Of a stretch of DNA of 64,000 nt, positions 1,541 through 49,918 are shown piece by piece. Within the stretch, counting starts at the first letter, position 1, and each line of letters begins with the position of its first letter. The stretch comes from Patescibacteria group bacterium. Its GTDB lineage: Bacteria > Patescibacteriota > Minisyncoccia > UBA6257 > UBA9933. The DNA lies in assembly GCA_038078555.1 (NCBI GenBank), contig JBBTYQ010000001.1:60966-124965 (forward strand), written 5' to 3'. The position numbers were made by a program, and so were the translations under genes. The notes beneath the pieces are model-generated. The model was not told the DNA's origin and did not search any database. It worked only from the letters and a program-made list of their open reading frames with translations.

Positions 1541-4500
1541 CTACTCCCCTATCTTCAACCAATTCCTATTCATAATGGAGAAGTCTATGGAATTAACTAT
1601 AGTGTCTTTGTTGATGTCAGAGATTGGGTCTGATAGAAACCATTTGGAAGATAACATGGAGTAATCAAGAGAATTGATGACATTGTCTTGATTTAAGTCT
1701 CCGGCTGGTAAGGTTGGAATAGTGATGGTTGAGTTATTGGTAAGACTGATATTAGTTTGTTTTTTGGATAAGTAATAAGGTGATGATACTTTAACGTCGT
1801 AAGTGCTTGGAGCAATGGTTATTGAAGATAAAGTTATTGAGTTAGCAGTCGGGTTTTGAGTTGCGGTGTAGATTGCGGTTGAAGAACCCGGATTGTAAAT
1901 AGAGATGGTAAAGCTGTTGGAATTAATAGTAGTGTTTCTTTCAAGAGATAGGTTGAAAGAAACATTGGAGGTAGTGGAGACTGGCGGAGCTTGAGTCGTG
2001 GCTGAGGCTGATACTGATTGAGCTGATACATTATTTGCGGCGTCATAAGCGGAAACCGTATAAGAGTATGAAGTGCTTGGAGATAAGCCGGTGTCTGAAT
2101 AACTGGTAGTATTGGAAGTTCCAATTTGCGTACCTCCCCGATATATTCTATAGCCTGTTACTCCGACGTTATCAGTCGAAGCAATCCAAGAGAGATTAAT
2201 TTGAGTTGAAGAGATTGCAGTGGCTGATAGGTTTGTGGGTACTGATGGAGCCGTGGTGTCAGAAGGCGGCGGAGGCGGGATGACTGAACCAGTATAATTA
2301 GAAACACTGGAAAGTTCTTGCAAGGAAAGAATTCTATTATAAATCATTACTTCGTCGATTTTTCCGTTAAATGCTTGAGAACCGCTTGTAAAGGCGCCGA
2401 TTATAAAATTACTGGCTGAATCGTCAGTGGGAGCGCCGCTGCCTATTGATCTTGAAGTATAAGCGGTCTCGCTTACGCTTCCACCTGAAGGCGCGGTATA
2501 AAATCTTATGCCGTCAGCGCTGGAAAATGTTATAGCCGCAAACTGCCAGGCGCCCAGCGTGATGGAATCACTGGCCGCCACGGTTGACGCAATTCCATTT
2601 GCTCTTGTAATAAACGAGGAGAAAGTATTTGGTGTTTGAAGTTTTGTTCTTTTGTATTCGGTTGTTAAAGTGGCCTTATTAAATAATCTTCCGGATGAAC
2701 TGCCTCCCAAAGTATTGGGTAAAATCCACATGGTAATGGTAAAAGGGTCTAAATTATCCATGATTGTCGGACTGCCCAAGTCAACCATGTCGTTTACTCC
2801 GTCAAAGTTTATGGCTCCATTTACTTTTCCGGTTGTCCAGGTCGGTCCATTGGTCAATGTTCCGCTGTTGTTACTTGAAGAATCATTGGCAATTAAGCCG
2901 CTTCCTTCGTCAAAATTCCAATAGCCTATTAAGTTAGAAGGTAGCTGACTTGAACCTCCTGCTAAAGCCACGGAAAAAGATATTAGATAATCATCAGGAT
3001 TAGAATTATTGGATTGGTCTTGGCATCTGATGTAATAGGAGTAAGCTGAACCGCTTGATAAACCTGTTATCAAGACTGAATGATTGGTTGAGTTGGTAGT
3101 GGAGAAAGTATTGGGTATTGAGGCGTATGAAGTATTTGCCGTAGTTGAATATTTGCAAGTGGCAGTTTCATTGGTTGATAAGGATAAGGTAGTTTGAGTG
3201 GTTGAAGAAGGCAGACTGCCTGATGGAGCTCCACTTGATCTTACAGGAGGAGTGATGTCAGCTGTCGGAGCTTGAGTTGTAGCTGAGGCTGAACTTGATT
3301 GAGCTGATACATTACCAGCCGCGTCATAAGCGGCAACTGTATAAGAGTAGGCTGTAGAAGCCGTAAGTCCGGTATTTGAATAAGTTGTATTGGCGGTGGT
3401 AGCAATTTGCGTACCTGCTCGATATATTCTATAGCCTGTTACTCCGACATTATCAGTAGAAGCAGTCCAAGAAAGATTAATTTGAGATTGGGAGATTGCA
3501 GTGGCGGATAAGCCAGTGGAAACTGAAGGAGCGGTAGTATCAGAAGGCGGTGGTGGTGGTGGCGGCAGAGTTCCCGAACAAGTTGATAAAAGACCGATAC
3601 ATTCAGTGCCTGTTTGATAAGCGCCCATTACTTGACTCGAGCGTCCATTGGCCGGATATGAAGTTCTTTTGAAATCAGCGGGTTGATTGAATGTTCCAGA
3701 AGAATTAAGAAAATTAGGATTTGTTGTTATAGAGTTTTCATCGCAATTTATTCCGGTCGTACAACCAGCCCCAGCCAAAAAAGATTTCCAAGCCGAAAGA
3801 GTGGTTCCTTTGGAAGAACCGTTTACCCACCAACTAGTATTGCCGGCTCCGCTGTAATAATCGTTGTAATCTATATAATCAAAATCAGAGATCGTCCAGT
3901 TGGAAGAATCAAAACCCAAAAAATTTCCGCCTGTAGCATGATAATGAATATTATTCCAAAAATGAGACGCCTGAGACGTGCTTTGCCAATAACCGATGTC
4001 TCTGATATTGTTGTAAAACGTATTATTCCTTACGTAAAAGTAATTAGGCGCCCCGTTAGCCACGGAAACAGCCGTGCCGTTGTTTATAAAAACATTCTGA
4101 TAAATATCCGACCAATCAATGCCTACTTGAGTGTCTCCTTCAATTCCTTGAGGCATATTATGAAAAAAATTATAGCGCGCAGTCATTTGATTACCGCGGT
4201 CTTTCCACTTTATGCCTGTATTAAGGCCATCATAGAATTCGTTATTCTCTAAAATCATGCCTTTTGTCCCGTATGTTAAAATAAGAACGTCATTTCCCGA
4301 CCCTTGGGCCATTGCAGGCAAATTGTCGTGAATTTTATTATTTCGAACAAGCAAGTTTTCCATCCAGTCTGTAGGCGTTGTATTGGGAGGATTGCCTGTG
4401 GTGCGGATAACTGCGGGAAATCCCTGATAATCGCCACCGCCAGATAAATCGTTATTCTGTATAATAGAATTATCTCCGCCAGCGCCGACGTGAATATTAC

Positions 4501-4933
4501 CCCAGACATAAAATCCATCAATCGTAACATTGGCCGCGCCGATGGAAATCGTTTTGCAAAATCCGCAAGTGTTATAAACATTGCTTGAATGATTATTTGT
4601 GCTGGAGATCCAGACTACTTCTCCTGGCGCGGCTTTCCAGGTTGTATTTGCCACCGTGGCCTGAATGGCAGCGGCTGTGGTTCCGCTGGTATAAACCGCT
4701 CCGCCGGCTCGGGCATGCACGATTACCGTATCGCCGGGAACAACTCGCGTTCCCGCGTACCAAGGAGTTTTCCAAGGAGTAGACGCTGAACCGTTGTTAG
4801 TATCGCTGCCATTGTCATAATCAACATGATAAGTGGCGGCTTGAACGCTTAAAGTACTAAATAAAATTCCGAAAAATAAAAGCAACGCGAAAAAACCGAA
4901 CCATTTTAATTTTGTTAAAATCATTGCAAGCAC
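1541..4933 (-). CDS. Large secreted multidomain surface protein: signal peptide, right-handed beta-helix region, FN3-like domain, concanavalin/LamG-like lectin domain, second FN3-like domain, Ig-like segment, C-terminal dockerin-like repeat pair
   Basis: 1130 aa with an N-terminal hydrophobic signal peptide. Parallel beta-helix style motifs (NNDLSGGG, NNKIHDN, many N/G-rich turns). Two near-identical modules of about 100 aa begin PPPPSDTTAPSV..INLSW.ASTDNVGVTGYRIYR. (FN3-like). The MVDLGSP..FTITMWI segment is typical of the LamG/ConA-like fold. The C-terminus GDLNQDNVINSLDYSMLSSKWF...SDINKDTIVNSIDFSIMNRNWL resembles a dockerin Ca-binding repeat pair. Confidence 0.75.
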   Translation of the reverse strand: MLAMILTKLKWFGFFALLLFFGILFSTLSVQAATYHVDYDNGSDTNNGSASTPWKTPWYAGTRVVPGDTVIVHARAGGAVYTSGTTAAAIQATVANTTWKAAPGEVVWISSTNNHSSNVYNTCGFCKTISIGAANVTIDGFYVWGNIHVGAGGDNSIIQNNDLSGGGDYQGFPAVIRTTGNPPNTTPTDWMENLLVRNNKIHDNLPAMAQGSGNDVLILTYGTKGMILENNEFYDGLNTGIKWKDRGNQMTARYNFFHNMPQGIEGDTQVGIDWSDIYQNVFINNGTAVSVANGAPNYFYVRNNTFYNNIRDIGYWQSTSQASHFWNNIHYHATGGNFLGFDSSNWTISDFDYIDYNDYYSGAGNTSWWVNGSSKGTTLSAWKSFLAGAGCTTGINCDENSITTNPNFLNSSGTFNQPADFKRTSYPANGRSSQVMGAYQTGTECIGLLSTCSGTLPPPPPPPSDTTAPSVSTGLSATAISQSQINLSWTASTDNVGVTGYRIYRAGTQIATTANTTYSNTGLTASTAYSYTVAAYDAAGNVSAQSSSASATTQAPTADITPPVRSSGAPSGSLPSSTTQTTLSLSTNETATCKYSTTANTSYASIPNTFSTTNSTNHSVLITGLSSGSAYSYYIRCQDQSNNSNPDDYLISFSVALAGGSSQLPSNLIGYWNFDEGSGLIANDSSSNNSGTLTNGPTWTTGKVNGAINFDGVNDMVDLGSPTIMDNLDPFTITMWILPNTLGGSSSGRLFNKATLTTEYKRTKLQTPNTFSSFITRANGIASTVAASDSITLGAWQFAAITFSSADGIRFYTAPSGGSVSETAYTSRSIGSGAPTDDSASNFIIGAFTSGSQAFNGKIDEVMIYNRILSLQELSSVSNYTGSVIPPPPPSDTTAPSVPTNLSATAISSTQINLSWIASTDNVGVTGYRIYRGGTQIGTSNTTSYSDTGLSPSTSYSYTVSAYDAANNVSAQSVSASATTQAPPVSTTSNVSFNLSLERNTTINSNSFTISIYNPGSSTAIYTATQNPTANSITLSSITIAPSTYDVKVSSPYYLSKKQTNISLTNNSTITIPTLPAGDLNQDNVINSLDYSMLSSKWFLSDPISDINKDTIVNSIDFSIMNRNWLKIGE
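1975..2290. repeat. DNA-level copy B of the intragenic FN3-module repeat; partner at about 3245-3570
   Basis: Both copies encode nearly identical protein segments (poly-Pro, SDTTAPSV...TGYRIYR...ATTQAP). The nucleotide sequences are visibly similar. Confidence 0.6.
3245..3570. repeat. DNA-level copy A of the intragenic FN3-module repeat
   Basis: See the partner copy at 1975-2290. Confidence 0.6.
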
Positions 4934-4947
4934 TTTATTTCCTTAAA

Positions 4948-6771
4948 TTACCAGATTATGCTTTTAAATGCTTTTATAAATATTGTAAGTATATTAGGCA
5001 TAATATCAGAAGGCGGCGGCGAAATAAATTTTTCTGAAGGAACCGGACTTAAAAACGGCTCTTTATAAAGTAAATTATCAACTGACTCCTGCGGTATCGG
5101 CATTAAAGGAGCAAATGGCGAAATTATCCTTTGGGGAGACATTATTTCCTGAGTTGGCATTTGTCCTTCCTCCATCATTTTCTTAATCATATCGGGGCTA
5201 GGAATTATATTCTGATAATTATTAGGCGCCTCTCCGTAAAATGGCATTTCTTTAGCCGGCATCATTTGACCTTCGAATCCTTCACGGAACATTTCGCTTG
5301 GAATTTCTCCTTGAGGCATTTCACGATAAGGTGCTTCTTTGAATCCTTCAGGAAGTCCTTTGGGCAAATTAGCTGGTTTAAATTTTTCGCATTCTTCTTT
5401 ATGTGTTTGGTCAGAACAATATCTCGTGCAATCTTCGAATCCCGAACAACCGCCCGGTCCTCTCATTCTTTCCGGACTGCCAATCATTGGCATGCCCTCT
5501 TGCAATCTTCCTTCTTGAAGTCTCGCTGATTCGCCTTGAATCATAGACTTAGGCCTAAACCCTTCAAAACATTTTCTCATAGAATCTCCTATTTGCGGTC
5601 CGGGCATCAAAACGCCGGCTTGAATTTTCTCCAAAATTTCCAGACCTAAGTTTGATTTTAAACATTCTTGAACCTCAGAAGGCGCTCCAGAAAAATCATT
5701 CTTCATATGTTCAATCCCTTCTCTCATGTTTTCAATATCTTTTTCCGGAATCAGTCCGTGCTCTTTAGCAAAACCAAAACAAACTTCTGCGTTATTTGAG
5801 TTATTACAATATGCTTCGCATTCTTCTTTGCCCCGGCAATCGCCCGGTCCTTTACCGCCGGTTTTTCTAAACATTTCAGCTTCTTCCGGTTTCATAAAAC
5901 CGGCTTTAATAGCAAAATTAGCGCATTCTTCCGAATGTGTTCCATCTTCGCAATATGCTTCGCATTCTTCTTTGCCCCGGCAATCGCCCGGCATCTCGCC
6001 CGCTATCATCAATGGCATAATTCTTCTGGCTTCTTCAACTTCTTTCTCCTCAATAAAACCGGCCGCCACGGCAAAATTAAAACATTCTTCCATGTGAATT
6101 GATTCGGAACAATACACATCGCATTCTTTTCTCCCTCGGCAGTTGCCCGGCGGATTAATACCGGACTTAATCGCTTTCATTGCTTTTTTTGCTTCTTTAA
6201 GTTCTTTCTCAGGCATAAAACCCGCTTGTTCGGCAAAAGCCAAACACTCTTCCATGTGCTCGGAGTTATCACAATATAATTCGCAGTCTTTTTTGTTTTT
6301 ACAGCCGCCAGGAAGAGTTGCTCCTTCTTTCACTGTCTTAGCAACTAGTCTAGCTTCCCTTAGCTCTTCTTCGGAAATCAAATCATTTTCCTCGGCAAAA
6401 TTCAAACAAACTTCCATATTATTGGGATTATCACAAAAAGTCTCGCATTCTTTTTTATTTTTGCAGCCAGCCGGACCTTCGCCTATTTTAATAAAAGCTT
6501 TTGCCTTTCTAGCTTCTTCCTTGGAAATTAAATTATTTTTTTCGGCAAAATTAACGCAAGCACCAATATTTTCCGGCTTATCACAATAAGTCCGGCATTG
6601 AGTTTCATTTTTACAATTGCCTAGTTCTTTTACTGGATAGCTGATATCTAATTGTTGTGTTCCGATTTCTGTTTCCTGCGCCTGAGCGATTATAAAATAG
6701 CTGGTAAAAAATCCAGTAGCAATGATAGCTGCGCCTAATATTAAATTTATATTTATTCGCATTATTTTCAT
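4948..6771 (-). CDS. Secreted Cys-rich tandem-repeat protein: eight repeats of about 42 aa of the form C-x6-C-x3-C-x7/8-C-x2-FA, followed by a Met/Pro/Gln-rich low-complexity tail
   Basis: 607 aa. Signal peptide MKIMRININLILGAAIIATGFF. Repeat units include CKNKKECETFCDNPNNMEVCLNFAEENDLISEEELREARL, CRGKEECEAYCEDGTHSEECANFAIKAGFM and similar. The tail is rich in MP..QM motifs. Confidence 0.75.
   Translation of the reverse strand: MKIMRININLILGAAIIATGFFTSYFIIAQAQETEIGTQQLDISYPVKELGNCKNETQCRTYCDKPENIGACVNFAEKNNLISKEEARKAKAFIKIGEGPAGCKNKKECETFCDNPNNMEVCLNFAEENDLISEEELREARLVAKTVKEGATLPGGCKNKKDCELYCDNSEHMEECLAFAEQAGFMPEKELKEAKKAMKAIKSGINPPGNCRGRKECDVYCSESIHMEECFNFAVAAGFIEEKEVEEARRIMPLMIAGEMPGDCRGKEECEAYCEDGTHSEECANFAIKAGFMKPEEAEMFRKTGGKGPGDCRGKEECEAYCNNSNNAEVCFGFAKEHGLIPEKDIENMREGIEHMKNDFSGAPSEVQECLKSNLGLEILEKIQAGVLMPGPQIGDSMRKCFEGFRPKSMIQGESARLQEGRLQEGMPMIGSPERMRGPGGCSGFEDCTRYCSDQTHKEECEKFKPANLPKGLPEGFKEAPYREMPQGEIPSEMFREGFEGQMMPAKEMPFYGEAPNNYQNIIPSPDMIKKMMEEGQMPTQEIMSPQRIISPFAPLMPIPQESVDNLLYKEPFLSPVPSEKFISPPPSDIMPNILTIFIKAFKSIIW
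5770..6620. repeat. Tandem repeats of about 126 bp encoding the Cys-rich modules
   Basis: Recurring nucleotide strings such as gcattcttctttgccccggcaatcgcccgg and ttcggcaaaattaa... at roughly 126-bp spacing. Confidence 0.55.
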
Positions 6772-18733: not shown

Positions 18734-20428
18734 ATGTATATGCACTATAGCATGAATAATTCAAATTTTAATATTAAGGAAAAACTAAAGCAAATCTGGC
18801 AAGCCGGAAAAGAAAGAGAAGCCCAAAAACTTGCCAAAAATTTAAACCAAAACTATCTTGATTTGACAACTGCTTCAATAAACATTGAGGCTCTAGCTCT
18901 GATTCCCGAAGAAAATGCCAAAAAAGCCAAGGCTTTGGCGGTTAGTTTAAAAAATAATAATCTTGCCGTGGCGGTTGTTGATTTAAGCCTGACCGAAACT
19001 AAGGAAGAGATTAAAAATTTGGAAGCCAAAGGATTCAAGCTGAAGATTTTTATAGTTTCTTTAAAAAGTTTTGACTACGGATTTGGTTTTTATAAGTTTA
19101 TTTCCGAAAAAAAAAATCAAATTACCGGAAAAGTAGGGCTGGAAAAAGAAAAATTTTCGGAAATCAGAAAAAAAATTAATTCACTGAAAGATTTTACCGA
19201 ATTACTTTCTTCGGCATATGAAGAAAAAGGTGATGTCGCCGAAATTTTGGAAATAATTTTTGCCGGCGCTTTAATTAATCGAGCTTCCGATATTCACCTT
19301 GAGTCTGAAGAAAAAAGCGTCAATTTGAAAATTAGAGTTGACGGTTTGATGCGCAAAGTTTTTTCCGGAATAGAAAAAGAATTTTATGAACACCTGCTTT
19401 CCAGAATTAAACTGCTTTCCGGTTTAAAGATTAATATTCACGACGAGCCGCAAGACGGCCGGTTTACCATCGAATTTCCCGAAAAAAAAATTGAAACAAG
19501 AATAGCGATTGCGCCGTCAGAATTTGGAGAAGTGATTGTCATGCGCTTGCTTGATCCCGACAGCATTAATATTTCTTTAATTAGTTTAGGATTAAGAACA
19601 GACGATTTAAAAATTATAGAAAACGAGCTTAAAAAACCCAACGGTCTTATTTTAAATACCGGACCGACCGGTTCCGGAAAAACCACCACTCTTTATGCTT
19701 TTTTAAGCCACAAAAAAAATCCCGAAATTAAGCTAATCACCATAGAAGACCCGATAGAATATCACATGGAAGGCATTGAACAAACCCAGGTTGATGCAGA
19801 AAGCGGTTATACTTTTGCCACTGGGCTAAGGTCTTTAATGAGGCAAGATCCGGACGTTATTTTAGTTGGAGAAATAAGAGACAAAGAAACCGCTGAAATA
19901 GGTATTCAAGCGGCTTTAACGGGCCACCTGGTGTTTTCCACGATTCACGCCAACGCTTCAAGCGGCGCTATCCCCCGCTTGCTTGATTTGGGCGTAAAAG
20001 CAACAAGCATCGGCCCGGCTTTAAATTTAATTATCGGACAAAGGCTGGTTCGCCGGCTTTGTCCTGATTGTAAAAAAACCAAATCAATTGAGCCTGACTT
20101 AGAAAGCAAAATCCGCTCTTTTTTAAAAAAACTGCCTTCTCGAGCAAGCGCGGAACAATATAATGATATTAAAATCTATGAGGCTGTGGGCTGTGATAAG
20201 TGCGGCAATTTTGGATATAAAGGAAGAATCGCTATTTATGAGCTTTTAATAGTTGATAACTCTTTAGAAGAATTAATTGCGCAAGAAGCTGGCGAGCCTA
20301 GAATACAAGAGCTCGCCTCAAAACAAGGCATGACAACAATGCAGCAGGATGGTATATTAAAAACGATTTCAGGCATTACCACTTTTGATGAGGTTGAAAA
20401 TGTTACCGGGCCGCTCGAGTGGCAGTAA
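18734..20428 (+). CDS. Type II/IV secretion-system ATPase (GspE/PilB family)
   Basis: 564 aa. Walker A GPTGSGKTTTLYA, Walker B and His box, and a C-terminal Zn tetracysteine CPDC...CDKCG. The true start may be an internal Met. Confidence 0.85.
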   Translation: MYMHYSMNNSNFNIKEKLKQIWQAGKEREAQKLAKNLNQNYLDLTTASINIEALALIPEENAKKAKALAVSLKNNNLAVAVVDLSLTETKEEIKNLEAKGFKLKIFIVSLKSFDYGFGFYKFISEKKNQITGKVGLEKEKFSEIRKKINSLKDFTELLSSAYEEKGDVAEILEIIFAGALINRASDIHLESEEKSVNLKIRVDGLMRKVFSGIEKEFYEHLLSRIKLLSGLKINIHDEPQDGRFTIEFPEKKIETRIAIAPSEFGEVIVMRLLDPDSINISLISLGLRTDDLKIIENELKKPNGLILNTGPTGSGKTTTLYAFLSHKKNPEIKLITIEDPIEYHMEGIEQTQVDAESGYTFATGLRSLMRQDPDVILVGEIRDKETAEIGIQAALTGHLVFSTIHANASSGAIPRLLDLGVKATSIGPALNLIIGQRLVRRLCPDCKKTKSIEPDLESKIRSFLKKLPSRASAEQYNDIKIYEAVGCDKCGNFGYKGRIAIYELLIVDNSLEELIAQEAGEPRIQELASKQGMTTMQQDGILKTISGITTFDEVENVTGPLEWQ

Positions 20429-36809: not shown

Positions 36810-37166
36810 TTATCCTAAGAAGTTTGCCACAATTCTGTCTAAGGCAAATGCCAGAAGCGCAACAACTATTGCTATTGCGGCGTAAATAATTTGGTTTTTT
36901 GCATTGCCGACTTTTTCCGGATCGCCTCCGGATGTCAAATAAGTGAATGCCGCAAAAAGAATAAAGAACGCGGCAACCACAAAGAAAAGCGTATAAACCC
37001 AGCCTAAAATTCTCGTTACCACCGCATATAATCCCTGAATGTCGCTTATATTAGAAGGATTCGGCGCTCCGCCTCCGGGAAGAGGTGGTATTGTCAAAGC
37101 TAATGATGAGCTTGCGAATATCGATAAGCCGATAAGGACAGTTAATAAAATTAGGGAAATTTTCAT
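36810..37166 (-). CDS. Pilin-like small secreted two-TM protein, paralog 4 (VirB2/TrbC-like topology; putative T4SS-type pilin)
   Basis: 118 aa. Signal peptide, then TM1 LFFVVAAFFILFAAFTYL, loop TSGGDPEKVGNAKNQ, TM2 IIYAAIAIVVALLAFAL. Confidence 0.55.
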   Translation of the reverse strand: MKISLILLTVLIGLSIFASSSLALTIPPLPGGGAPNPSNISDIQGLYAVVTRILGWVYTLFFVVAAFFILFAAFTYLTSGGDPEKVGNAKNQIIYAAIAIVVALLAFALDRIVANFLG

Positions 37167-37237
37167 TGAAATTTTTATAACTTTTATAATTACGAGCCTG
37201 ATATGTTCTCGACCTTTTTAATCTATAAATTATAGCA

Positions 37238-37585
37238 TCATTGCAGGAATTTACTAATAATTACGTCAAAACTGAACGCTAATAAAGCTACTATAATGGC
37301 AATCACCGCATAAAGAATCCGCTTATTGGATTCTGTGATTTTTGTCGGGTCGCCTTGGGCGGTTAAATAAGAGAAAGCGGCTATAATAATAAAAAAAGCC
37401 GCAACAATGAAAAATAGCGTATAAGCCCAACCGAGAATTTTTTCAAAAATGCGGAATATGTCATTAAAACTTTTTATCGGCGAATCAGAAGGCGCGCCAG
37501 CCGCATTGATAAAAAAGATAGGGATAAAAATCAATAAGGCAGATAGCGAGAGTTTTTTAAAATATTTCTTGGATAATATTGTCAT
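37238..37585 (-). CDS. Pilin-like small secreted two-TM protein, paralog 3
   Basis: 115 aa. ...ILGWAYTLFFIVAAFFIIIAAFSYLTAQGDPTKITESNKRILYAVIAIIVALLAFSF.. is about 70% identical to paralog 4 over the core. Confidence 0.55.
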   Translation of the reverse strand: MTILSKKYFKKLSLSALLIFIPIFFINAAGAPSDSPIKSFNDIFRIFEKILGWAYTLFFIVAAFFIIIAAFSYLTAQGDPTKITESNKRILYAVIAIIVALLAFSFDVIISKFLQ

Positions 37586-37592
37586 AAAAAGT

Positions 37593-37955
37593 TTAAATTA
37601 ATTTTGCTCCTAAGGCTTCTTGAATAATGTAAATTACGCCCCACGAACAGATGATAACGGCATAACCTATTGCGGCCCACATAATTGTCTTCCTTCCGCT
37701 TATTACTTGATCCGGCTTGTCGCCGGCGGTAAGTATCAAAAATCCGCCGTAAAGCACCATTAAAGCGACAATTGGGGCGCCGAGCTTGATTAAATAGCCG
37801 ATAATTCTTTGAACTAATTGAAGAAAAGTTTGGTCTTGCAAAGGATCTCTTAATCCTCCTGTTTCAAGAACTCCGGCAGCCAAAGCTGTTTGAAGCGAAA
37901 AGAAATAAGCAGAAACAAAAAACGATAAAATGTATTTTTTTGAGAAATTACCCAT
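37593..37955 (-). CDS. Pilin-like small secreted two-TM protein, paralog 2
   Basis: 120 aa. Signal peptide. ...LMVLYGGFLILTAGDKPDQVISGRKTIMWAAIGYAVII.. Same topology and the same LT(A/S)xGD motif. Confidence 0.5.
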   Translation of the reverse strand: MGNFSKKYILSFFVSAYFFSLQTALAAGVLETGGLRDPLQDQTFLQLVQRIIGYLIKLGAPIVALMVLYGGFLILTAGDKPDQVISGRKTIMWAAIGYAVIICSWGVIYIIQEALGAKLI

Positions 37956-38025
37956 TTATTTTATTATTTGATAATTGATATTTAAAGTCAATCCCGCGCG
38001 ATTTATGATTTTGTGGCACAGATAT

Positions 38026-38436
38026 TTAACAGTGGATTGCCGTTCTTATTTCCAATGGATTAAACGGCTGGCCGGTTAAAAGCATAAGCAATTCTTTGAT
38101 TATCAGCCAGGCGGCTAGCGCTATTAAGAGCCCGATTACCGCGGCTTTAATAACATCTCCCCCTCTTTTGAGTTCGCTGGCAGAGTCTCGGCTTATCATA
38201 ATTACAAAACCGCCGTAAATTATGAAAATAACTGTTAAAGGAATAGCAACGCTATAAAGCGCAAAATTTATAATATTTTCTCCGAGAGTCAGTAAATCGC
38301 AAAACTTGCAACTTGCTCCTTCGCAAGGAATAAGCCCGGCGGCGCTTGCCATAAAAGGAGAATTTAAAATCGTAAACAAAAAAATAACAGCATAAAAAGC
38401 AAAAATTTTAAATTTTAAATAATTTTGACTTTTCAT
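38026..38436 (-). CDS. Pilin-like small secreted two-TM protein, paralog 1 (more divergent, Cys-containing)
   Basis: 136 aa. Signal peptide. ...FIIYGGFVIMISRDSASELKRGGDVIKAAVIGLLIALAAWLI... Confidence 0.45.
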   Translation of the reverse strand: MKSQNYLKFKIFAFYAVIFLFTILNSPFMASAAGLIPCEGASCKFCDLLTLGENIINFALYSVAIPLTVIFIIYGGFVIMISRDSASELKRGGDVIKAAVIGLLIALAAWLIIKELLMLLTGQPFNPLEIRTAIHC

Positions 38437-44492: not shown

Positions 44493-45281
44493 ATGAAAGA
44501 GATGCTGATAAATCTGTTAGTAGGCGGATCAGGTATTTTAGTTGTGATAGGCATGTATTTTTTTGTCGCCACTCACGGCTCTTTATGGGTTCAAAGATGC
44601 TGGCATTGTAAATATAAAGACATTTATTGGCTTTATAAAAATCCATACTTGATTTGGTTTACCGATCGGCAGCCACTCATCTCCACGATTCTTTTGGGCA
44701 AGTACTTTAAAATGACGAGCGATATAATAAAAGCGATAAATCAGCAAAGCGTTGCCAATAAAAGAATTTTGCAGATAGGCTGTGCTTTCGGCCAGTTTTC
44801 TCAAAAAATAGCGGAGAATTGTCGGGCAGAGTCAGTTTCAGTTGTTGATTTAATTAAATCCGAAATAATCAATAGCCGAAGCAAGATTGGGATGATCAGC
44901 GCAAAATCGGATTTTAATTTTATTGTGGCTAGCGGCGCGCCGCTTCCATATAAAGATGAAACATTTAATTGCGTGATTCTTTTCTTTCTTTTTCACGAGC
45001 TGCCAATAGAAGAAAAAGCTAAGGTTCTTAAAGAAGCGTCTCGGGTTTTAAAAGTTGGTGGCGAAATTGTTTTTGCTGAATTTCACCGGCCTTTTTCCAG
45101 ATTACTAAGGGTTTCCGGGCGCTGTTTTTTCTGGGTTTTTGAGCCTTATGCCAAAGAAATGTGGAATAAGTTTGAACCTATAAAAGTTTTGAACCAGGAA
45201 ACGCCTAATAAATGGCGAGACAAAAGGATAACTTACCTGATGGGAAATTATCAGGTATTAAGAATAAAAAAAATAAATTAA
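44493..45281 (+). CDS. Class I SAM-dependent methyltransferase with N-terminal TM anchor
   Basis: 262 aa. Motif I ILQIGCAFGQFS. Post-I acidic residue and motif II/III pattern are present. Confidence 0.6.
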   Translation: MKEMLINLLVGGSGILVVIGMYFFVATHGSLWVQRCWHCKYKDIYWLYKNPYLIWFTDRQPLISTILLGKYFKMTSDIIKAINQQSVANKRILQIGCAFGQFSQKIAENCRAESVSVVDLIKSEIINSRSKIGMISAKSDFNFIVASGAPLPYKDETFNCVILFFLFHELPIEEKAKVLKEASRVLKVGGEIVFAEFHRPFSRLLRVSGRCFFWVFEPYAKEMWNKFEPIKVLNQETPNKWRDKRITYLMGNYQVLRIKKIN

Positions 45282-45291
45282 TTATGTTTTA

Positions 45292-45318
45292 TAGGCTCCG
45301 CTTGCGGAGCCTATTTTA
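45292..45318 (+). terminator. Hairpin terminator
   Basis: ataggctccgcttgcggagcctatttt. Confidence 0.5.
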
Positions 45319-45357
45319 TTTGACAATTTTTTATTATTATGCTAAGTTAAGGAACAA

Positions 45358-46383
45358 ATGACTAATCTAAAAAATATAATTAATAATTTTGTATCAGTTT
45401 TTTCGCCCCGGCAAAAAGACATTATTGAAAAAAGATTTGGCTTGGCTGGAGAAGTGCAGACTTTGGCGGCCGTTGGAAAAAAATATAACCTAACTCGAGA
45501 AAGAGTAAGGCAGATTGAAGCTATGGCGCTAAAATCAATCGGCGAGAAGCTCAAAAACAGCGCGGCAGAAGAATTTATGAATGCCGCCCTGGCTTATCTT
45601 GAAAAAACTGGCGGAGTAAGAAAAGAAGAGGACTTTTTAAGCGACCTTAAAAATTTGTTCGGCGATCAAACCATTAGCCGCTCGCAGTTGAAATTCATTT
45701 GTGAAATCAACGGCCGGCCGTATTATCATCCAGGCGATAAAGATTTTTATGATTTTTGGTATTCAAGTAAAGAAGTTTTTGAGAATGTCCGCGCTATAAT
45801 AAATAAATTAGAAAAATTCTTGTCAGACAAGAAAGATAAAATAATTTTAGAAAAAAAGTTTAACGAGTTTTTTAGCCAATTTATCAAATCAAATAATTTG
45901 GAAAAATCAACTGTTCAAAATTACCTGCTTATTTCCAAAAAATTTGCCATTAATCCTTACGGTGATTTCGGGCTTTCCTCTTGGGATGAAATAAGCCCCA
46001 AAACAATCAGGGCCAAAATTTTGCTGATTTTAAAAAAGCAAGGCAAGCCTTTGCATTTCCGCGAAATTACCAAGCAGATAAATGATATTAAATTAAATAA
46101 GCGGGCGGCTTTGCCGCAGACGGTTCACAATGAATTAATTCGTGACCCGAATTTTGTTTTAGTCGGCCGCGGCATGTATGGCCTTTCGGAATTCGGGCTT
46201 ATGCCGGGCACAGCCAAAGAAGTTATTGCAAGAATTTTAAAAAGCAAAGGCCCGATGGCGGCTAATCGCATTGTTGATTTGGTGCTTCAGGAAAGATTTC
46301 TTAAGCAAAATACTATTTTATTGAATCTTCAAAATAAAAAGCATTTTAAAAAAATGCCCGACGGAAAATATCAGCTTGCTTAA
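45358..46383 (+). CDS. Protein with an N-terminal sigma-70 region-4-like HTH and an uncharacterised C-terminal domain
   Basis: 341 aa. KDIIEKRFGLAGEVQTLAAVGKKYNLTRERVRQIEAMALKSIG closely matches sigma-70 region 4.2. The remaining roughly 270 aa are not recognised. Confidence 0.5.
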   Translation: MTNLKNIINNFVSVFSPRQKDIIEKRFGLAGEVQTLAAVGKKYNLTRERVRQIEAMALKSIGEKLKNSAAEEFMNAALAYLEKTGGVRKEEDFLSDLKNLFGDQTISRSQLKFICEINGRPYYHPGDKDFYDFWYSSKEVFENVRAIINKLEKFLSDKKDKIILEKKFNEFFSQFIKSNNLEKSTVQNYLLISKKFAINPYGDFGLSSWDEISPKTIRAKILLILKKQGKPLHFREITKQINDIKLNKRAALPQTVHNELIRDPNFVLVGRGMYGLSEFGLMPGTAKEVIARILKSKGPMAANRIVDLVLQERFLKQNTILLNLQNKKHFKKMPDGKYQLA

Positions 46384-46468
46384 TTTTAAGCCGTCGATCA
46401 TTGACATTAGTCATTTTCAATTAAGTTTTGTAAAATATTAAGAATTAAAGATTGGCCGCGTTCAATTT

Positions 46469-47770
46469 ATGGTTGAAATTTATAAAGGCATTCTTCAGAG
46501 TATTTTTCAGGCGTTTTCTTACAGCTGGTGGATTGTTTTGCCGATTTTTTTGTTTTCGATTTTTTGGAAAGTTTGGATAATTTATATTCGGACAAGGACT
46601 ATCAGCAAAATCAAATGGAAGCTTTTTGAAATTAAAGTTACCACGGAAGTTTTGAAAACTCCTAAATCAATGGAGCAAGTGATTGCCGGTCTTTATGCTT
46701 CTTATTCTTACGGCCTTAATTGGCTAAAGAAATACGTTGATGGTGAAGTTGAAAAACGGTTTTCTTTGGAAATGGTCGGCACTTCCAGCGGCGTTTATTT
46801 TTATATTTATGCTCCGGCTGACAGCCAGAATTTGGTGGAATCGGCTGTTTACGGTCAGTATCCTGAAGCGGAAATAAATGAAGTTGAAGATTATGCCGAT
46901 TTTGTTTCTTCGGTTTTGCCCAATGAAGTTTATGATGTTTTTGGCATGGAACTGGGACTGGCTAGAGATAGTTTTTATCCGATTAAAAGATATTATTATT
47001 TTGAGGCAATGGTTGAAGAACAGCGCATTGACCCTATAGCTGCCATTTCCGAAGTAATGTCAAAATTAAAAGAAGACGAAAAAATCTGGATTCAGATTTT
47101 AATCAGTCCGACCGGATCAGCTACCGGCAACGACTGGAAAAAAGAAGGTGAGAAAAAAATAGACGAAATTATCGGCCGGAAAAAAGACAAGAAATCCGGA
47201 GGATTTTTTAGCGACATCAATGTTTTTATCAATAATTTTTTATGGGCGCCGGTGGAGCCTCCGATTTGGCCGGGCGAAAAAAAACCCGATGCGCCGACTA
47301 ATAGAACTCTTTCTCCGGATGAACAGGACTTAGTTAAAGAAATTTACAATAAAATTTCTTATTTGGGTTTTGAGTTTTTAATCCGGTTCGTTTATATTGA
47401 CCGGCAAGATAGTTTTTCGCCCGCCAATGTTTCGGCGATAATGGGCGCTTTGCATCAGTTTAACACCCAAAATCTTAATGCTTTTAAGCCCAATACCATG
47501 ACTATAACTAATTACGATTCTTTATTAGCCAGAATTTTTCCCTCGTATAAAAAAATGATAGTGCTTTACAAAAAAAGAAGATTATTCAATTATTATAAAC
47601 AAAGAAGATTCGGGCAATTTAATAAAATCAGAGAAGAGAAGTTTTCCGTATTAAATACGGAAGAATTGGCAACTATTTTTCACTTCCCGACCGTTATTGT
47701 GAAAGCGCCTTCGCTTAAGAGGGTTGAAGCCAAAAAAGGAAGTCCGCCTTCTGGGTTGCCCACAGAATAA
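46469..47770 (+). CDS. Hypothetical membrane-anchored protein (N-terminal TM, large soluble domain)
   Basis: 433 aa with no recognisable motifs. Located immediately upstream of the VirD4-like ATPase. Confidence 0.45.
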   Translation: MVEIYKGILQSIFQAFSYSWWIVLPIFLFSIFWKVWIIYIRTRTISKIKWKLFEIKVTTEVLKTPKSMEQVIAGLYASYSYGLNWLKKYVDGEVEKRFSLEMVGTSSGVYFYIYAPADSQNLVESAVYGQYPEAEINEVEDYADFVSSVLPNEVYDVFGMELGLARDSFYPIKRYYYFEAMVEEQRIDPIAAISEVMSKLKEDEKIWIQILISPTGSATGNDWKKEGEKKIDEIIGRKKDKKSGGFFSDINVFINNFLWAPVEPPIWPGEKKPDAPTNRTLSPDEQDLVKEIYNKISYLGFEFLIRFVYIDRQDSFSPANVSAIMGALHQFNTQNLNAFKPNTMTITNYDSLLARIFPSYKKMIVLYKKRRLFNYYKQRRFGQFNKIREEKFSVLNTEELATIFHFPTVIVKAPSLKRVEAKKGSPPSGLPTE

Positions 47771-47797
47771 TTTAATGAATAATTAATCAATCTTCAG

Positions 47798-49264
47798 ATG
47801 GATAATAACAGCGAAACAACTTTATTCGGAAAAACTACTTTTAGAAATCAAATGGTTCGTTTTGGCATCAAAACCGACGATCGTCGCCGGCATGTTTATA
47901 TTGTTGGTAAAACCGGTGTCGGCAAAACAACGCTTTTGGAGAGTTTGACTATAGCTGACATTAGAGCTGGCCGCGGTTTGGCTGTGGTTGACCCTCACGG
48001 CGAGTATGCTGAACGAATGTTGGAATTTATTCCGGAAAATAGAATTGACGATGTTATTTATTTTAACCCGGCTGACCTTAGTAATCCGATTGCTTTTAAT
48101 CCCCTGGAGTCAATTGACCCGGAATATCGCCATTTAGTTGCCTCAGGCATTATGGGCGTGTTTAAAAAAATTTGGCCCGATGTTTGGTCAGCCAGAATGG
48201 AATATATATTAAACAACGCTCTTGTGTCGCTTTTGGAATATCCCGGCGCAACTTTGCTTGGCATCATGAGAATGCTTTCGGAAAAAGATTATCGAGCTAA
48301 GGTGGTGGAAAATTTGAAAGACCCGGTTGTAAAAGCTTTCTGGGTTAATGAGTTCGCCCGTTATACTCAAAGACTTGAAACCGAAGCAGTAGCGGCTATT
48401 CAAAACAAAGTCGGCCAATTCGTGACTAATCCTATGGTGAGAAATATTATAGGCCAGCCTCATTCCACTATCGATATGAGAAAAATAATGGATGAAGGAA
48501 AAATTTTAATTGTTAATCTTTCTAAGGGAAGAATCGGCGAAGATAATTCAGCTCTTTTGGGAGCAATGATGATTACCAAGCTTCAGTTGGCGGCTATGTC
48601 GAGAGTTGACACGCCGATGGAAAAGCGCCGTGATTTTTATCTTTACGTTGACGAATTTCAGAATTTTGCCACCGAATCTTTCGCTGATATTTTATCGGAA
48701 GCGAGGAAATACCGCCTTAATTTAATCTTGGCCCATCAATATATTGAACAGCTTTCCGAAGAAGTTCAGGCTGCTGTTTTCGGCAATGTCGGCACCTTGG
48801 TTTGTTTTAGAGTCGGCGCCACAGATGCTGAATTCCTGGAAAAAGAATTAATGCCGGAATTTAATGCTCAAGACTTAGTCAATTTGTCAAAATATAATAT
48901 TTATTTGAAGCTGATGATTGACGGCATGGCTTCCAAGGCTTTTTCCGCTCAGACTCTTGACCCGTTTGAGCCGGCCATAGAATCTTTTAAAGACGTTATT
49001 ATTCAAAACAGCCAAAACAAATACGGCGTCCCCCGTTCTATTATTGAAGAAAAAATCGCTGAAGAGTGGAAATCTGAAGCGAAAATTTTTGAAGATAAAA
49101 CTTTGCGCCGCAGCGAACAGCCTCTTTCCAAAATTCTTACTCCTCAAGGCGTACCTTTTAAAAAAGAAGCTGCACCTTCAAGAGAAAGAGAAAAAAAAGA
49201 AGTTGATGTTGATGAATTAAGGAGAGCGATAGAGGAATCGTTAAGAAAAAGAGAAGATAAATAA
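47798..49264 (+). CDS. Soluble P-loop ATPase of the VirD4/TraD/TrwB (FtsK-HerA superfamily) coupling-protein type
   Basis: 488 aa. Walker A GKTGVGKTTLLE followed by VVDPHGEY. Walker B FYLYVDEFQNF. ARKYRLNLILAHQYIEQL matches the RK(F/Y)G...Q...QL signature of TraD/TrwB/VirD4. No TM segments. Confidence 0.5.
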   Translation: MDNNSETTLFGKTTFRNQMVRFGIKTDDRRRHVYIVGKTGVGKTTLLESLTIADIRAGRGLAVVDPHGEYAERMLEFIPENRIDDVIYFNPADLSNPIAFNPLESIDPEYRHLVASGIMGVFKKIWPDVWSARMEYILNNALVSLLEYPGATLLGIMRMLSEKDYRAKVVENLKDPVVKAFWVNEFARYTQRLETEAVAAIQNKVGQFVTNPMVRNIIGQPHSTIDMRKIMDEGKILIVNLSKGRIGEDNSALLGAMMITKLQLAAMSRVDTPMEKRRDFYLYVDEFQNFATESFADILSEARKYRLNLILAHQYIEQLSEEVQAAVFGNVGTLVCFRVGATDAEFLEKELMPEFNAQDLVNLSKYNIYLKLMIDGMASKAFSAQTLDPFEPAIESFKDVIIQNSQNKYGVPRSIIEEKIAEEWKSEAKIFEDKTLRRSEQPLSKILTPQGVPFKKEAAPSREREKKEVDVDELRRAIEESLRKREDK

Positions 49265-49426
49265 TCTCGAATTTTTGAGGGCAAACTTGACACATAGCAA
49301 CGACATTGATTTAATTGACGAATGCGAAAATAAAGTAAAAAATTTTCAGCGAATTTAAAAAGAATTTCAAATCGAAATTCGATAAACTAAAAAGCTAACG
49401 AGCTGGCAAGCTAATTGGCTAAAATC

Positions 49427-49501
49427 GCTCCTATCGTCTAGTCTGGTCTAGGACATCGGCTTTTCAAGCCGGTAACCCGGGTTCGAATCCCGGTGGGAGC
49501 A
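49427..49501 (+). tRNA. tRNA-Glu (anticodon TTC)
   Basis: Acceptor gctccta/tgggagc with one G-U pair, D arm gtctagtctggtctaggac, anticodon stem cggc/gccg with loop ttTTCaa, T arm ccggg-ttcgaat-cccgg. No encoded CCA. Confidence 0.75.
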
Positions 49502-49528
49502 CAGAATAAATAAACACAGAATAAATAA

Positions 49529-49557
49529 AAAAGCGCAAACTTAGTTTGCGCTTTTTT
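49529..49557. terminator. Bidirectional terminator
   Basis: aaaaagcgcaaacttagtttgcgctttttt. Confidence 0.55.
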
Positions 49558-49918
49558 GACACTGCCTGATTCGCTCGCCGTTTATAATAACATTTACTGT
49601 AATATCAGAGGAAAGAATCTCTATTTTTTGAAGAAAGATAATGCAATCTTTATCATTGCCGGTGTTATTGGCATTAGATCGATAAATGCCAATAATCAAT
49701 ATTTTCCCGCTGATATTATTTCTTTCCATTACTACCGCGTCTCCCGGATATAAAACAAATAGTCTATCTTCGTAGTCGCCATTCCCTATCACTTCTTTCC
49801 AGATGGTGATTTGTCCGATATATCGGTCCACCGGTAAAGCAAACGCTTTTTCGCTTAGGATAATCATTGCGCACATCATTACTGCCAGCATCATGACCAG
49901 TTTTTTCATATCAGCCAT
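49541..49918 (-). CDS. Small secreted protein of unknown function
   Basis: 125 aa. Signal peptide MADMKKLVMMLAVMMCAMIILSEKAFA. Confidence 0.45.
   Translation of the reverse strand: MADMKKLVMMLAVMMCAMIILSEKAFALPVDRYIGQITIWKEVIGNGDYEDRLFVLYPGDAVVMERNNISGKILIIGIYRSNANNTGNDKDCIIFLQKIEILSSDITVNVIINGERIRQCQKSAN

Follow-up and report, generated by a model that had tools for sequence, protein, structure and literature searches.

Which task is carried out by a coupling-protein-like motor that is encoded directly behind a membrane protein and a sigma-like DNA-binding protein? This question is raised by a stretch of 64,000 nucleotides (nt), hereafter the window, which derives from a 243-kb contig of a groundwater Patescibacteria metagenome-assembled genome. 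At positions 45358-49264 it carries three genes, all on the plus strand; we refer to their products, in gene order, as P1, P2 and P3. The ultrasmall Patescibacteria account for a considerable part of bacterial diversity and are host-dependent. To our knowledge, no coupling protein is encoded in the Patescibacterial type IV secretion system (T4SS) gene cluster. Quinonero-Coronel et al. (PMC12102498) reported 5,713 VirD4-type homologues in 2,918 Patescibacteria genomes; they remarked that the VirD4-type gene was possibly "exapted for other functions" and mentioned no sigma-like neighbour. Here we find that the three genes form a conserved operon-like unit in Patescibacteria. P2 and P3 are probably the two halves of a split 'long-form' type IV coupling protein (T4CP), with P1 as their DNA-recognition or regulatory partner.

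Conservation of the gene trio

A scan with the alignment of DUF8128 (the family of P2), taking one genome per GTDB species, yielded at least 590 relatives, and 80 of the loci were examined. These 80 are all from Patescibacteria and cover many candidate phyla of the Parcubacteria (Paceibacteria) lineage. P1 lies directly upstream of P2 in 77 of the 80 species genomes (in one of the remaining three the upstream sequence is too short for a verdict) and P3 directly downstream of P2 in 73. The intergenic gaps are short, with medians of 72 nt between P1 and P2 and 30 nt between P2 and P3 (85 and 27 nt in the window). Given this recurrence in 73 to 77 of 80 other species, the arrangement goes far beyond chance, and the three genes constitute a conserved operon-like unit. 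A first-pass annotation, made by a model from the letters of the window, had described three co-directional and closely spaced genes; the coordinates and lengths of the open reading frames (ORFs) are exactly as given there, and the gene neighbourhoods now add the co-conservation of the trio.

The genes around the trio vary between lineages: secD-secF are seen upstream in 47 of 80 loci, and downstream efp in 32, mnmA in 24 and comEC in 15 (within 6 kb). A recurrent synteny in many Paceibacteria, secD-secF-(P1-P2-P3)-efp-...-mnmA-comEC, is absent from the window, where an S1 protein and a methyltransferase are encoded upstream of the trio and tsaD, ftsW, yceG, rpoB and rpoC downstream. The trio is also found with other flanks at loci L003 and L093. 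Median identities to the window proteins are 39% for P1, 40% for P2 and 64% for P3. P3 is 53-73% identical across 72 species; the motor is unusually constrained.

DUF8128 as a whole comprises 3349 clusters at 50% identity; each of the best 150 is a stand-alone protein of 270-550 amino acids (aa). The Patescibacterial form is chromosomal. A mobile-element origin was considered and rejected: the DUF8128 alignment returned one truncated match only when compared with 2.9 million viral contigs.

P3 is a VirD4/TrwB-type ATPase without a membrane anchor

P3 consists of a VirD4/TrwB-family ATPase core that lacks a membrane anchor. Four Pfam families exceed their cut-offs, namely TrwB_AAD_bind (PF10412; 53.2 bits against 20.5, residues 25-339), DUF87 (PF01935; 45.3 against 23.2), T4SS-DNA_transf (PF02534; 35.4 against 20.1) and TraG-D_C (PF12696, the TraM-recognition region; 27.8 against 22, residues 281-348). 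FtsK_SpoIIIE stays under its cut-off (13.6 against 24), and so do the models for the VirB4-clade ATPase domain (AAA_10, 12.5 against 27.5; TIGR00929, 24.6 against 643). The best NCBIfam model is VirD4-like conju_CD1115 (62 against a cut-off of 250), and SXT_TraD scores 56 against 366; P3 reaches neither of these equivalog or subfamily scores. Its highest profile score comes from phrog_5156 (210 bits), a phage family discussed below.

The Walker A motif (GKTGVGKT), the Walker B motif (YLYVDEF, followed by ARKYRLNLILAHQYIEQL) and the RKY...AHQ...QL stretch, which had been read from the translation as a signature of TraD, TrwB and VirD4, indeed align to TrwB (1e9r/1gl6). Among PDB sequences TrwB and DotL are the best matches, with HerA far behind. 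P3 thus profiles as a coupling protein and not as a plain DUF87/HerA helicase, and its place in the HerA/FtsK superfamily is a matter of superfamily-level membership only. The reported lack of transmembrane segments holds as well: no 19-residue window exceeds a Kyte-Doolittle value of 1.6, the maximum being 1.31. The C-terminal tail is charged and variable and closes with a conserved helix.

P2 belongs to DUF8128 and is fused to the motor in relatives

P2 had been described as a membrane-anchored protein without recognisable domains. The first part agrees with the hydropathy profile, which gives a single N-terminal transmembrane region at about residues 20-44. The second part does not hold, since the precomputed annotation of an identical protein assigns P2 to the recently defined Pfam family PF26449 (PF26449.1, DUF8128), which is also assigned to nearly all of 120 homologues among the matches listed. 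Our local Pfam-A scan gave no DUF8128 match for P2, and the local copy seems to be without this family. The AlphaFold2 model of P2 (pLDDT 84.3, pTM 0.79) shows a long N-terminal helix followed by alpha/beta domains. When this model is compared with PDB structures by Foldseek, TrwK/VirB4 chains of plasmid R388 take all of the 13 best places (E 1.3e-5 to 2e-3, probability 0.96-1.0), 12 of them at E <= 0.001, and no other PDB match is significant. Judged from the model, and at low TM-scores, the alpha/beta domain would have a fold like that of the VirB4 N-terminal domain, with which P2, as the N-terminal module of the P2-P3 pair, probably shares ancestry. The most conserved part of the family is an invariant C-terminal junction motif, NTEELATIFHFP...AP.L.R...KKG.PP.

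Elsewhere P2 and P3 occur as one protein. The 824-position profile of phrog_5156 covers P2 with positions 54-213 (E 2e-12) and P3 with positions 396-807 (E 1e-61); its members are proteins of Bacillus phages, including gp156 of phage G (825 aa), gp27.4 of SPO1 (906 aa) and homologues in CP-51 and JL. Phage G gp156 matches P3 with E 5e-41, and it is also the best match of the P2 model among the viral structures of BFVD (E 2e-17, TMq 0.50). The adjacent gp155, a VirB4-type ATPase (P-loop_TraG, AAA_10), was matched by the P2 model too. In the jumbo phage G (89194-93336, locus L005) the VirB4-like gp155 thus stands beside the fused DUF8128/T4CP-like gp156; SPO1-like phages carry the fused protein alone (L006).

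Fusions are likewise found on plasmids. In Shouchella clausii (plasmid NZ_CP012476) residues 34-313 of an 883-aa 'DUF87' protein match the DUF8128 profile (hhalign 98.8%, E 1e-16), and the rest matches P3 over 99% of the length of P3. An 812-aa T4CP on the Embleya plasmid NZ_CP108778 matches first P2 and then P3, collinearly (the Embleya and phage G fusions are weaker matches than the one of Shouchella). In the fused proteins the junction motif directly precedes the ATPase. Its form is NTEELATIFHFP...APSLKR in P2 of the window, SVPELAALAHLP...APGLTR in Embleya, TAVELAGFAHLP...TPGLKK on a Pontibacillus megaplasmid and NVQEMSQFIHLP in phage G gp156. Because P2 and P3 are fused in these relatives, the two together are best regarded as a 'long' coupling protein in split form. 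That the anchor comes in trans from the membrane protein, as had been suggested, is well supported by the same fused forms (phrog_5156, gp156, Shouchella and Embleya).

The neighbours of the plasmid genes point to their role. The Embleya gene adjoins PrgI (VirB3-like), a VirB4-type ATPase (P-loop_TraG, AAA_10), Replic_Relax and an NlpC/P60 hydrolase, and behind the Shouchella gene lie those for Replic_Relax, for proteins annotated as conjugal transfer proteins and for an 'ATP-binding protein'. With such VirB4-like, Replic_Relax and conjugal transfer neighbours, the fused protein occupies the place that a coupling protein has in a conjugation system of the monoderm type.

On the Pontibacillus megaplasmid (NZ_CP062975; locus L088, 6992-10300) a DUF8128-like ORF runs into the Walker A motif and the ATPase continues in other frames or pieces, as would be expected of a fused gene broken by frameshifts or insertions. 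Its neighbour appears to be a full-length sigma factor, not a P1-like protein, and a Mbov_0395-family pilin-like conjugal transfer gene lies near this locus. A match on a Sulfitobacter plasmid (42% to P3) was set aside as uninformative, being an isolated, shorter ATPase among transposases.

P1 combines sigma region 4 with winged helices

The N-terminus of P1 had been recognised from the translation as a sigma-70 region 4 without region 2, and this is what we find. Residues 16-60 match Pfam Sigma70_r4 with 43 bits (cut-off 24.1), region 4 is complete (about residues 1-65), and Pfam gives no match for sigma region 2 in P1. Of the NCBIfam RpoD, RpoS and ECF models only the last ~60 positions align, with scores far under the cut-offs; against the ends of the RpoD and RpoS models the region 4 of P1 reaches E 1e-12. 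Without region 2, P1 does not qualify as a sigma factor. Its recognition helix, TRERVRQIE, is the same throughout 36 homologues.

The C-terminal part, formerly regarded as an unknown domain, can be resolved further. A HARE-HTH domain occupies residues 221-279 (39 bits, cut-off 25.9); it is preceded by a winged helix and a helical part in the middle of the protein and followed by a C-terminal winged helix at 286-340. The HARE-HTH domain also matches TIGR04567 (RNA polymerase delta) with 28 bits, under the cut-off of 42. The AlphaFold2 model (pLDDT 91.3) displays region 4 and then a chain of winged-helix-like modules. In Foldseek the N-terminus superposes on sigma-A region 4 of several bacteria (33-45% identity, root-mean-square deviation 1.3-1.5 A), and the remainder resembles tandem winged-helix proteins, e.g. 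UFL1/DDRGK1 and RPC62. Hydropathy shows no transmembrane segment. By its domains, P1 would be a cytoplasmic multi-winged-helix DNA-binding protein.

A corresponding gene pair in Southlakia epibionticum

A genetically tractable relative is available in Southlakia epibionticum, which belongs to another class (Saccharimonadia) and for which Wang et al. 2023 (PMC10633639, Tables S1/S2) list SEML1_0294 directly upstream of SEML1_0293 on the same strand. The 349 residues of SEML1_0294 include Sigma70_r4 (27-72), HARE-HTH (225-283) and three winged domains. SEML1_0293 has 921 aa and carries TrwB_AAD_bind (402-719), TraG-D_C and DUF87, its first ~360 residues being without an assigned domain; length and layout suggest that it is a fused P2-P3. 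Both genes are flagged as core, Patescibacteria-enriched families, and the pair is not discussed as a module in that study (PMC10633639).

According to the transposon insertion sequencing of the same authors, SEML1_0294 counts as essential at each of the three time points (1-2 insertions, compared with 24 in the input DNA) and SEML1_0293 is non-essential (87-120 insertions). The normalised reads of SEML1_0293 drop from 5817 to 1372 over the passages, those of its neighbours remaining flat. Also essential are a further long T4CP-like protein, SEML1_0142 (1019 aa, 'TraM recognition domain', P-loop 381-800), and the 139-aa hypothetical protein encoded ahead of it (SEML1_0141-0142). The FtsK of this organism is canonical and essential (SEML1_0096; domains 4TM, alpha, motor and gamma), ComEC and DprA are both dispensable, and a ComFC-like protein is listed; a search by name finds no protein called ComFA in the tables, which is not the same as absence of the gene (all from PMC10633639). 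Because SEML1_0294 is essential and SEML1_0293 is not, P1 must do more than serve the motor.

Layout of the locus and other genes in the window

The features at the locus are listed in Table 1. The methyltransferase gene ahead of the trio ends at the upstream hairpin, which sets the 5' limit of the unit. Directly after this hairpin stands a perfect -35 hexamer TTGACA (45320-45325), followed by a 17-nt spacer and a TGc-TAAGTT extended -10-like element (45340-45348), of which TAAGTT agrees at 3 of 6 positions; this element was not listed by the promoter scan. A Shine-Dalgarno-like AAGGAA lies 3 nt ahead of the ATG of P1. From these signals a promoter of the trio at this place is plausible, and the TTGACA could double as a binding site of P1 itself (autoregulation), as P1 has a primary-sigma-like region 4.

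Table 1. Features at the locus of the gene trio, in positions of the window
Feature	Position	Strand	Details
Upstream hairpin, intrinsic-terminator-like	45291-45314	+	10-bp stem with 6 GC pairs, then T-run
Candidate promoter	45320-45348	+	Direct reading of the sequence
P1	45358-46383	+	ORF, 341 aa
P2	46469-47770	+	ORF, 433 aa
P3	47798-49264	+	ORF, 488 aa
Promoter-like TTGACG-17-AAAAAT	49315-49343		Ahead of tRNA-Glu; promoter scan
tRNA-Glu(UUC)	49427-49502	+	ARAGORN; after the P3 stop codon, before the downstream hairpin
Downstream hairpin, bidirectional terminator-like	49527-49557	Both	15-nt arms, 100% complementary; A6-stem-T6

The trio had been described as bounded by two hairpin terminators. 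Both hairpins are present; as a simple terminator of the trio the downstream one falls short, since a tRNA-Glu gene stands between P3 and this hairpin, so that the hairpin ends the tRNA and a minus-strand ORF and not simply the trio. That convergent ORF (49541-49918, minus strand; 125 aa, called as 122 aa) has a hydrophobic N-terminus, a stop codon overlapping the bidirectional hairpin and no Pfam match. We found no terminator between P3 and the tRNA. With the tRNA inside the boundary, the 3' end of the transcription unit is less clean than first described: the tRNA may be co-transcribed with the trio or driven by its own promoter-like element, and the hairpin possibly ends the trio transcript too. 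Apart from the two hairpins, no repeats or oriT-like structures are present within 45200-49700.

About 7 kb from the trio, four tandem genes at 36810-38436 (minus strand) encode proteins of 115-136 aa that belong to PF18895 (T4SS_pilin, VirB2-like). The array is followed by genes for an SBP_bac_1 solute-binding protein and gyrA. The first-pass annotation had suggested that trio and pilins might be parts of one dispersed T4SS. We find no support for this, as a tblastn search with the four pilins gave nothing within 6 kb of the trio in the 80 loci, admittedly a weak test with such short and divergent proteins.

Of the remaining genes, the one at 1541-4933 (minus strand) encodes a 1130-aa protein with fibronectin-III, laminin-G-like and dockerin domains, probably a surface adhesin. 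Beside it lies a 607-aa ORF (4948-6771, minus strand) without a Pfam match. A PilB-type T2SSE ATPase with an MshEN domain (18734-20428, plus strand) would indicate a type IV pilus gene cluster in the region of 17-26 kb.

Proposed function and alternatives

How could the three proteins work together? In the model that we consider probable, P2 would provide the single membrane anchor and a VirB4-N-terminal-domain-like module ending in the ELAT-x2-HxP junction motif, and would dock P3 at the membrane in a physical complex. By analogy with TrwB, P3 would form a hexameric ring that spends ATP on feeding a substrate to a membrane channel, for which the dispersed Patescibacterial T4SS, ComEC, or none at all are the candidates. 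The substrate would most likely be DNA or a DNA-protein complex, given the coupling-protein family, the DNA-processing protein that partners the fused forms on plasmids, and the DNA-binding character of P1. P1 may stand in place of that DNA-processing partner (Replic_Relax), as known from the fused plasmid T4CPs of Bacillota and Actinomycetota, and may contact the motor. On the most economical view it would also bind -35-type DNA and/or RNA polymerase and control transcription, including that of the trio operon; a motor-independent role in transcription is most plausibly what P1 has in addition, and the tight linkage of P1 and P2 argues for a direct functional tie. Of the three functions proposed in the first-pass annotation (translocation module, defence system, part of a dispersed T4SS) this favours the first.

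A number of observations weigh against the model. Seven of the 80 loci have P1 and P2 but no adjacent P3, in a P1-P2-nusA group (L018, L027, L034 and L094) and a P1-P2-yceG-like group (L082, L083 and L086); in these two groups no ATPase gene is found within up to 6-10 kb downstream. Since P1 and P2 are kept together where P3 is not adjacent, their bond must be at least as tight as that of P2 and P3. Beside the fused forms outside Patescibacteria we found no P1-like gene, and the idea that P1 is a diverged Replic_Relax had to be rejected (hhalign E 0.66). The similarity of P2 to VirB4 is one of fold, at low TM-scores (TMq 0.28-0.37); comparison of the DUF8128 profile with PDB sequences gave no meaningful match, so there is no similarity at the sequence level. 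Coupling to a T4SS is unproven: as noted from the start, neither VirB4 nor a relaxase is encoded nearby, and VirB4, VirB6 and relaxase are missing from the large ORFs of the 64-kb window and from the called genes within 10 kb, with VirB4 and relaxase likewise absent at loci L003, L093 and L094. In the published survey only 148 of the 5,713 T4CP homologues are near virB4 (PMC12102498). The T4SS of S. epibionticum is essential even though SEML1_0293 is not (PMC10633639), and SEML1_0142 may be the true T4SS coupling protein there. Finally, the P1 orthologue is essential and hence not merely an accessory of the motor.

This last point leads to the strongest rival for the P1 part of the model, which we hold possible though less likely: P1 might primarily be an essential Patescibacteria-specific transcription factor or RNA polymerase accessory, with region 4 binding -35-type DNA and/or the beta-flap and the HARE-HTH domain acting as in RNA polymerase delta. 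The split ATPase would then work without P1, and the linkage would reflect shared regulation. Such a role fits an essential SEML1_0294 next to a non-essential ATPase, the agreement of region 4 with the ends of RpoD and RpoS and with the structure of sigma-A, the invariant recognition helix, the sub-threshold delta match of the HARE-HTH domain and the perfect TTGACA just upstream of P1. Nonetheless, linkage in 77 of 80 loci with changing flanks, plus Saccharimonadia, is beyond expectation for a general factor, and P1 and P2 are found together even without an adjacent P3.

It might also be argued that P2 and P3 act as a cytoplasmic DNA-uptake ATPase with ComEC, in place of ComFA, and that P1 handles incoming or genomic DNA. 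We regard this as the most interesting concrete alternative, albeit a rather unlikely one whose three supports are all weak. TrwB-type T4CPs are DNA-dependent translocases. SEML1_0293 is dispensable in co-culture growth, as are ComEC and DprA, and DprA is encoded ~5 kb from SEML1_0294; comEC follows the trio at a distance of up to 6 kb in 15 of the 80 loci, and in L003 as well; and only a ComFC-like protein, none named ComFA, is listed for S. epibionticum. The synteny with comEC is, however, common to secDF, efp and mnmA and may be mere lineage synteny, it is absent from the window, and a missing ComFA name does not equal a missing gene. Moreover, we know of no competence system that uses a T4CP.

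There is also a small chance that the trio is a self-contained, phylum-wide and T4SS-independent machine, in which P1, sitting on promoter-like DNA or on RNA polymerase, would be tethered via P2 to the motor and so couple genome or transcription to the translocase. In one version of this proposal the motor would power ComEC-dependent DNA import in organisms that are unable to make nucleotides.

That the trio serves in anti-phage defence, as a system with an ATPase of the HerA/FtsK type akin to MADS Mad8 or to the sigma-containing MZA, is very improbable. The PADLOC mad8 profile does match P3 (75.8 bits; HerA profiles are weak) and the MzaA profile matches region 4 of P1 (38 bits), but these matches are limited to the generic ATPase core and to sigma region 4. 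Further components of a defence system are absent, and the flanks are housekeeping genes. The trio is single-copy in hundreds of species across the phylum, both SEML1 families are core in Patescibacteria, and the identity range of P3 is unlike that of patchy, fast-evolving defence islands; the defence reading of the first-pass annotation is therefore disfavoured. Hardly credible, finally, is a replacement of FtsK/SpoIIIE as segregation DNA pump with the winged helices of P1 serving as the FtsK gamma domain: P3 belongs to the same FtsK/HerA superfamily and the split into anchor, motor and winged-helix reader mirrors the domain logic of FtsK, but FtsK_SpoIIIE stays under its cut-off on P3, and for Saccharimonadia the idea is largely refuted by the canonical essential SEML1_0096 beside a non-essential T4CP-like protein.

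Significance

The kinds of protein involved (coupling ATPase, sigma region 4, HARE-HTH) are known, and VirD4-like genes in Patescibacteria have been published. What appears to be undescribed in the searchable literature is the split architecture, the assignment of DUF8128, with a probable VirB4-like fold, to the N-terminal half of long coupling proteins, and the near-universal pairing with an essential sigma-like protein; a search of that literature returned no paper on 'DUF8128' and no description of the gene context of the Patescibacterial VirD4-like genes. An orphan ATPase hereby receives a defined architecture, in which the membrane half is a DUF8128 protein and the motor half is soluble, and DUF8128 receives a role and a probable VirB4-like ancestry. 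The near-universal partner is a sigma-like DNA-binding protein; its orthologue is essential in S. epibionticum, which is open to genetic manipulation, and the function of a highly conserved orphan ATPase becomes directly testable in an existing genetic system. The trio is thus a candidate DNA- or substrate-handling machine of Patescibacteria.

Comparison with known systems

A full region 4, recognition helix TRER.RQ included, is common to P1 and the sigma-70 factors, but P1 has neither region 2 nor region 3 and cannot act as a sigma factor. Its HARE-HTH domain resembles the N-terminal domain of RNA polymerase delta (RpoE). In contrast to delta, the domain is internal, with another winged helix after it, the TIGR04567 score is not reached, and a delta-like acidic tail is not seen in the sequence.

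The canonical T4CPs TrwB (R388), TraD (F), VirD4 and DotL have the nucleotide-binding core, the Walker motifs and the RK...Q..QL region in common with P3. They carry their own short N-terminal transmembrane domain and no DUF8128 module, whereas P3 is without transmembrane segments and no relaxase or mating-pair-formation genes lie nearby. VirB4 (TrwK) gives the best PDB fold matches of the P2 model, at low TM-scores, and VirB4-type gp155 of phage G matches too; VirB3-VirB4 fusions offer a comparable layout of transmembrane helix, N-terminal domain and ATPase. The ATPase of P3, on the other hand, is VirD4-like in sequence, as the AAA_10 and TIGR00929 scores indicate.

Closest in architecture are the fused 'long' T4CPs of Shouchella and Embleya, which have the same order of transmembrane region, DUF8128-like domain, ELA..H.P motif and VirD4-type ATPase; the ATPase half of the Embleya protein matches the same Pfam families as P3. 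They differ in being one polypeptide instead of two, in lying on plasmids beside VirB4, PrgI, Replic_Relax and a cell-wall hydrolase, in having no sigma-like partner and in an identity to P3 of only 26-32%. The phrog_5156 proteins combine a DUF8128-like and a T4CP-like part as P2 and P3 do together, yet they are phage-encoded, fused and without a P1-like partner, phage G pairing its copy with the VirB4-like gp155. The pair of S. epibionticum keeps the partner: a Sigma70_r4 and HARE-HTH protein is encoded directly upstream of a TrwB_AAD_bind/TraG-D_C/DUF87 ATPase, which there is a single protein of 921 aa where the window has P2 and P3.

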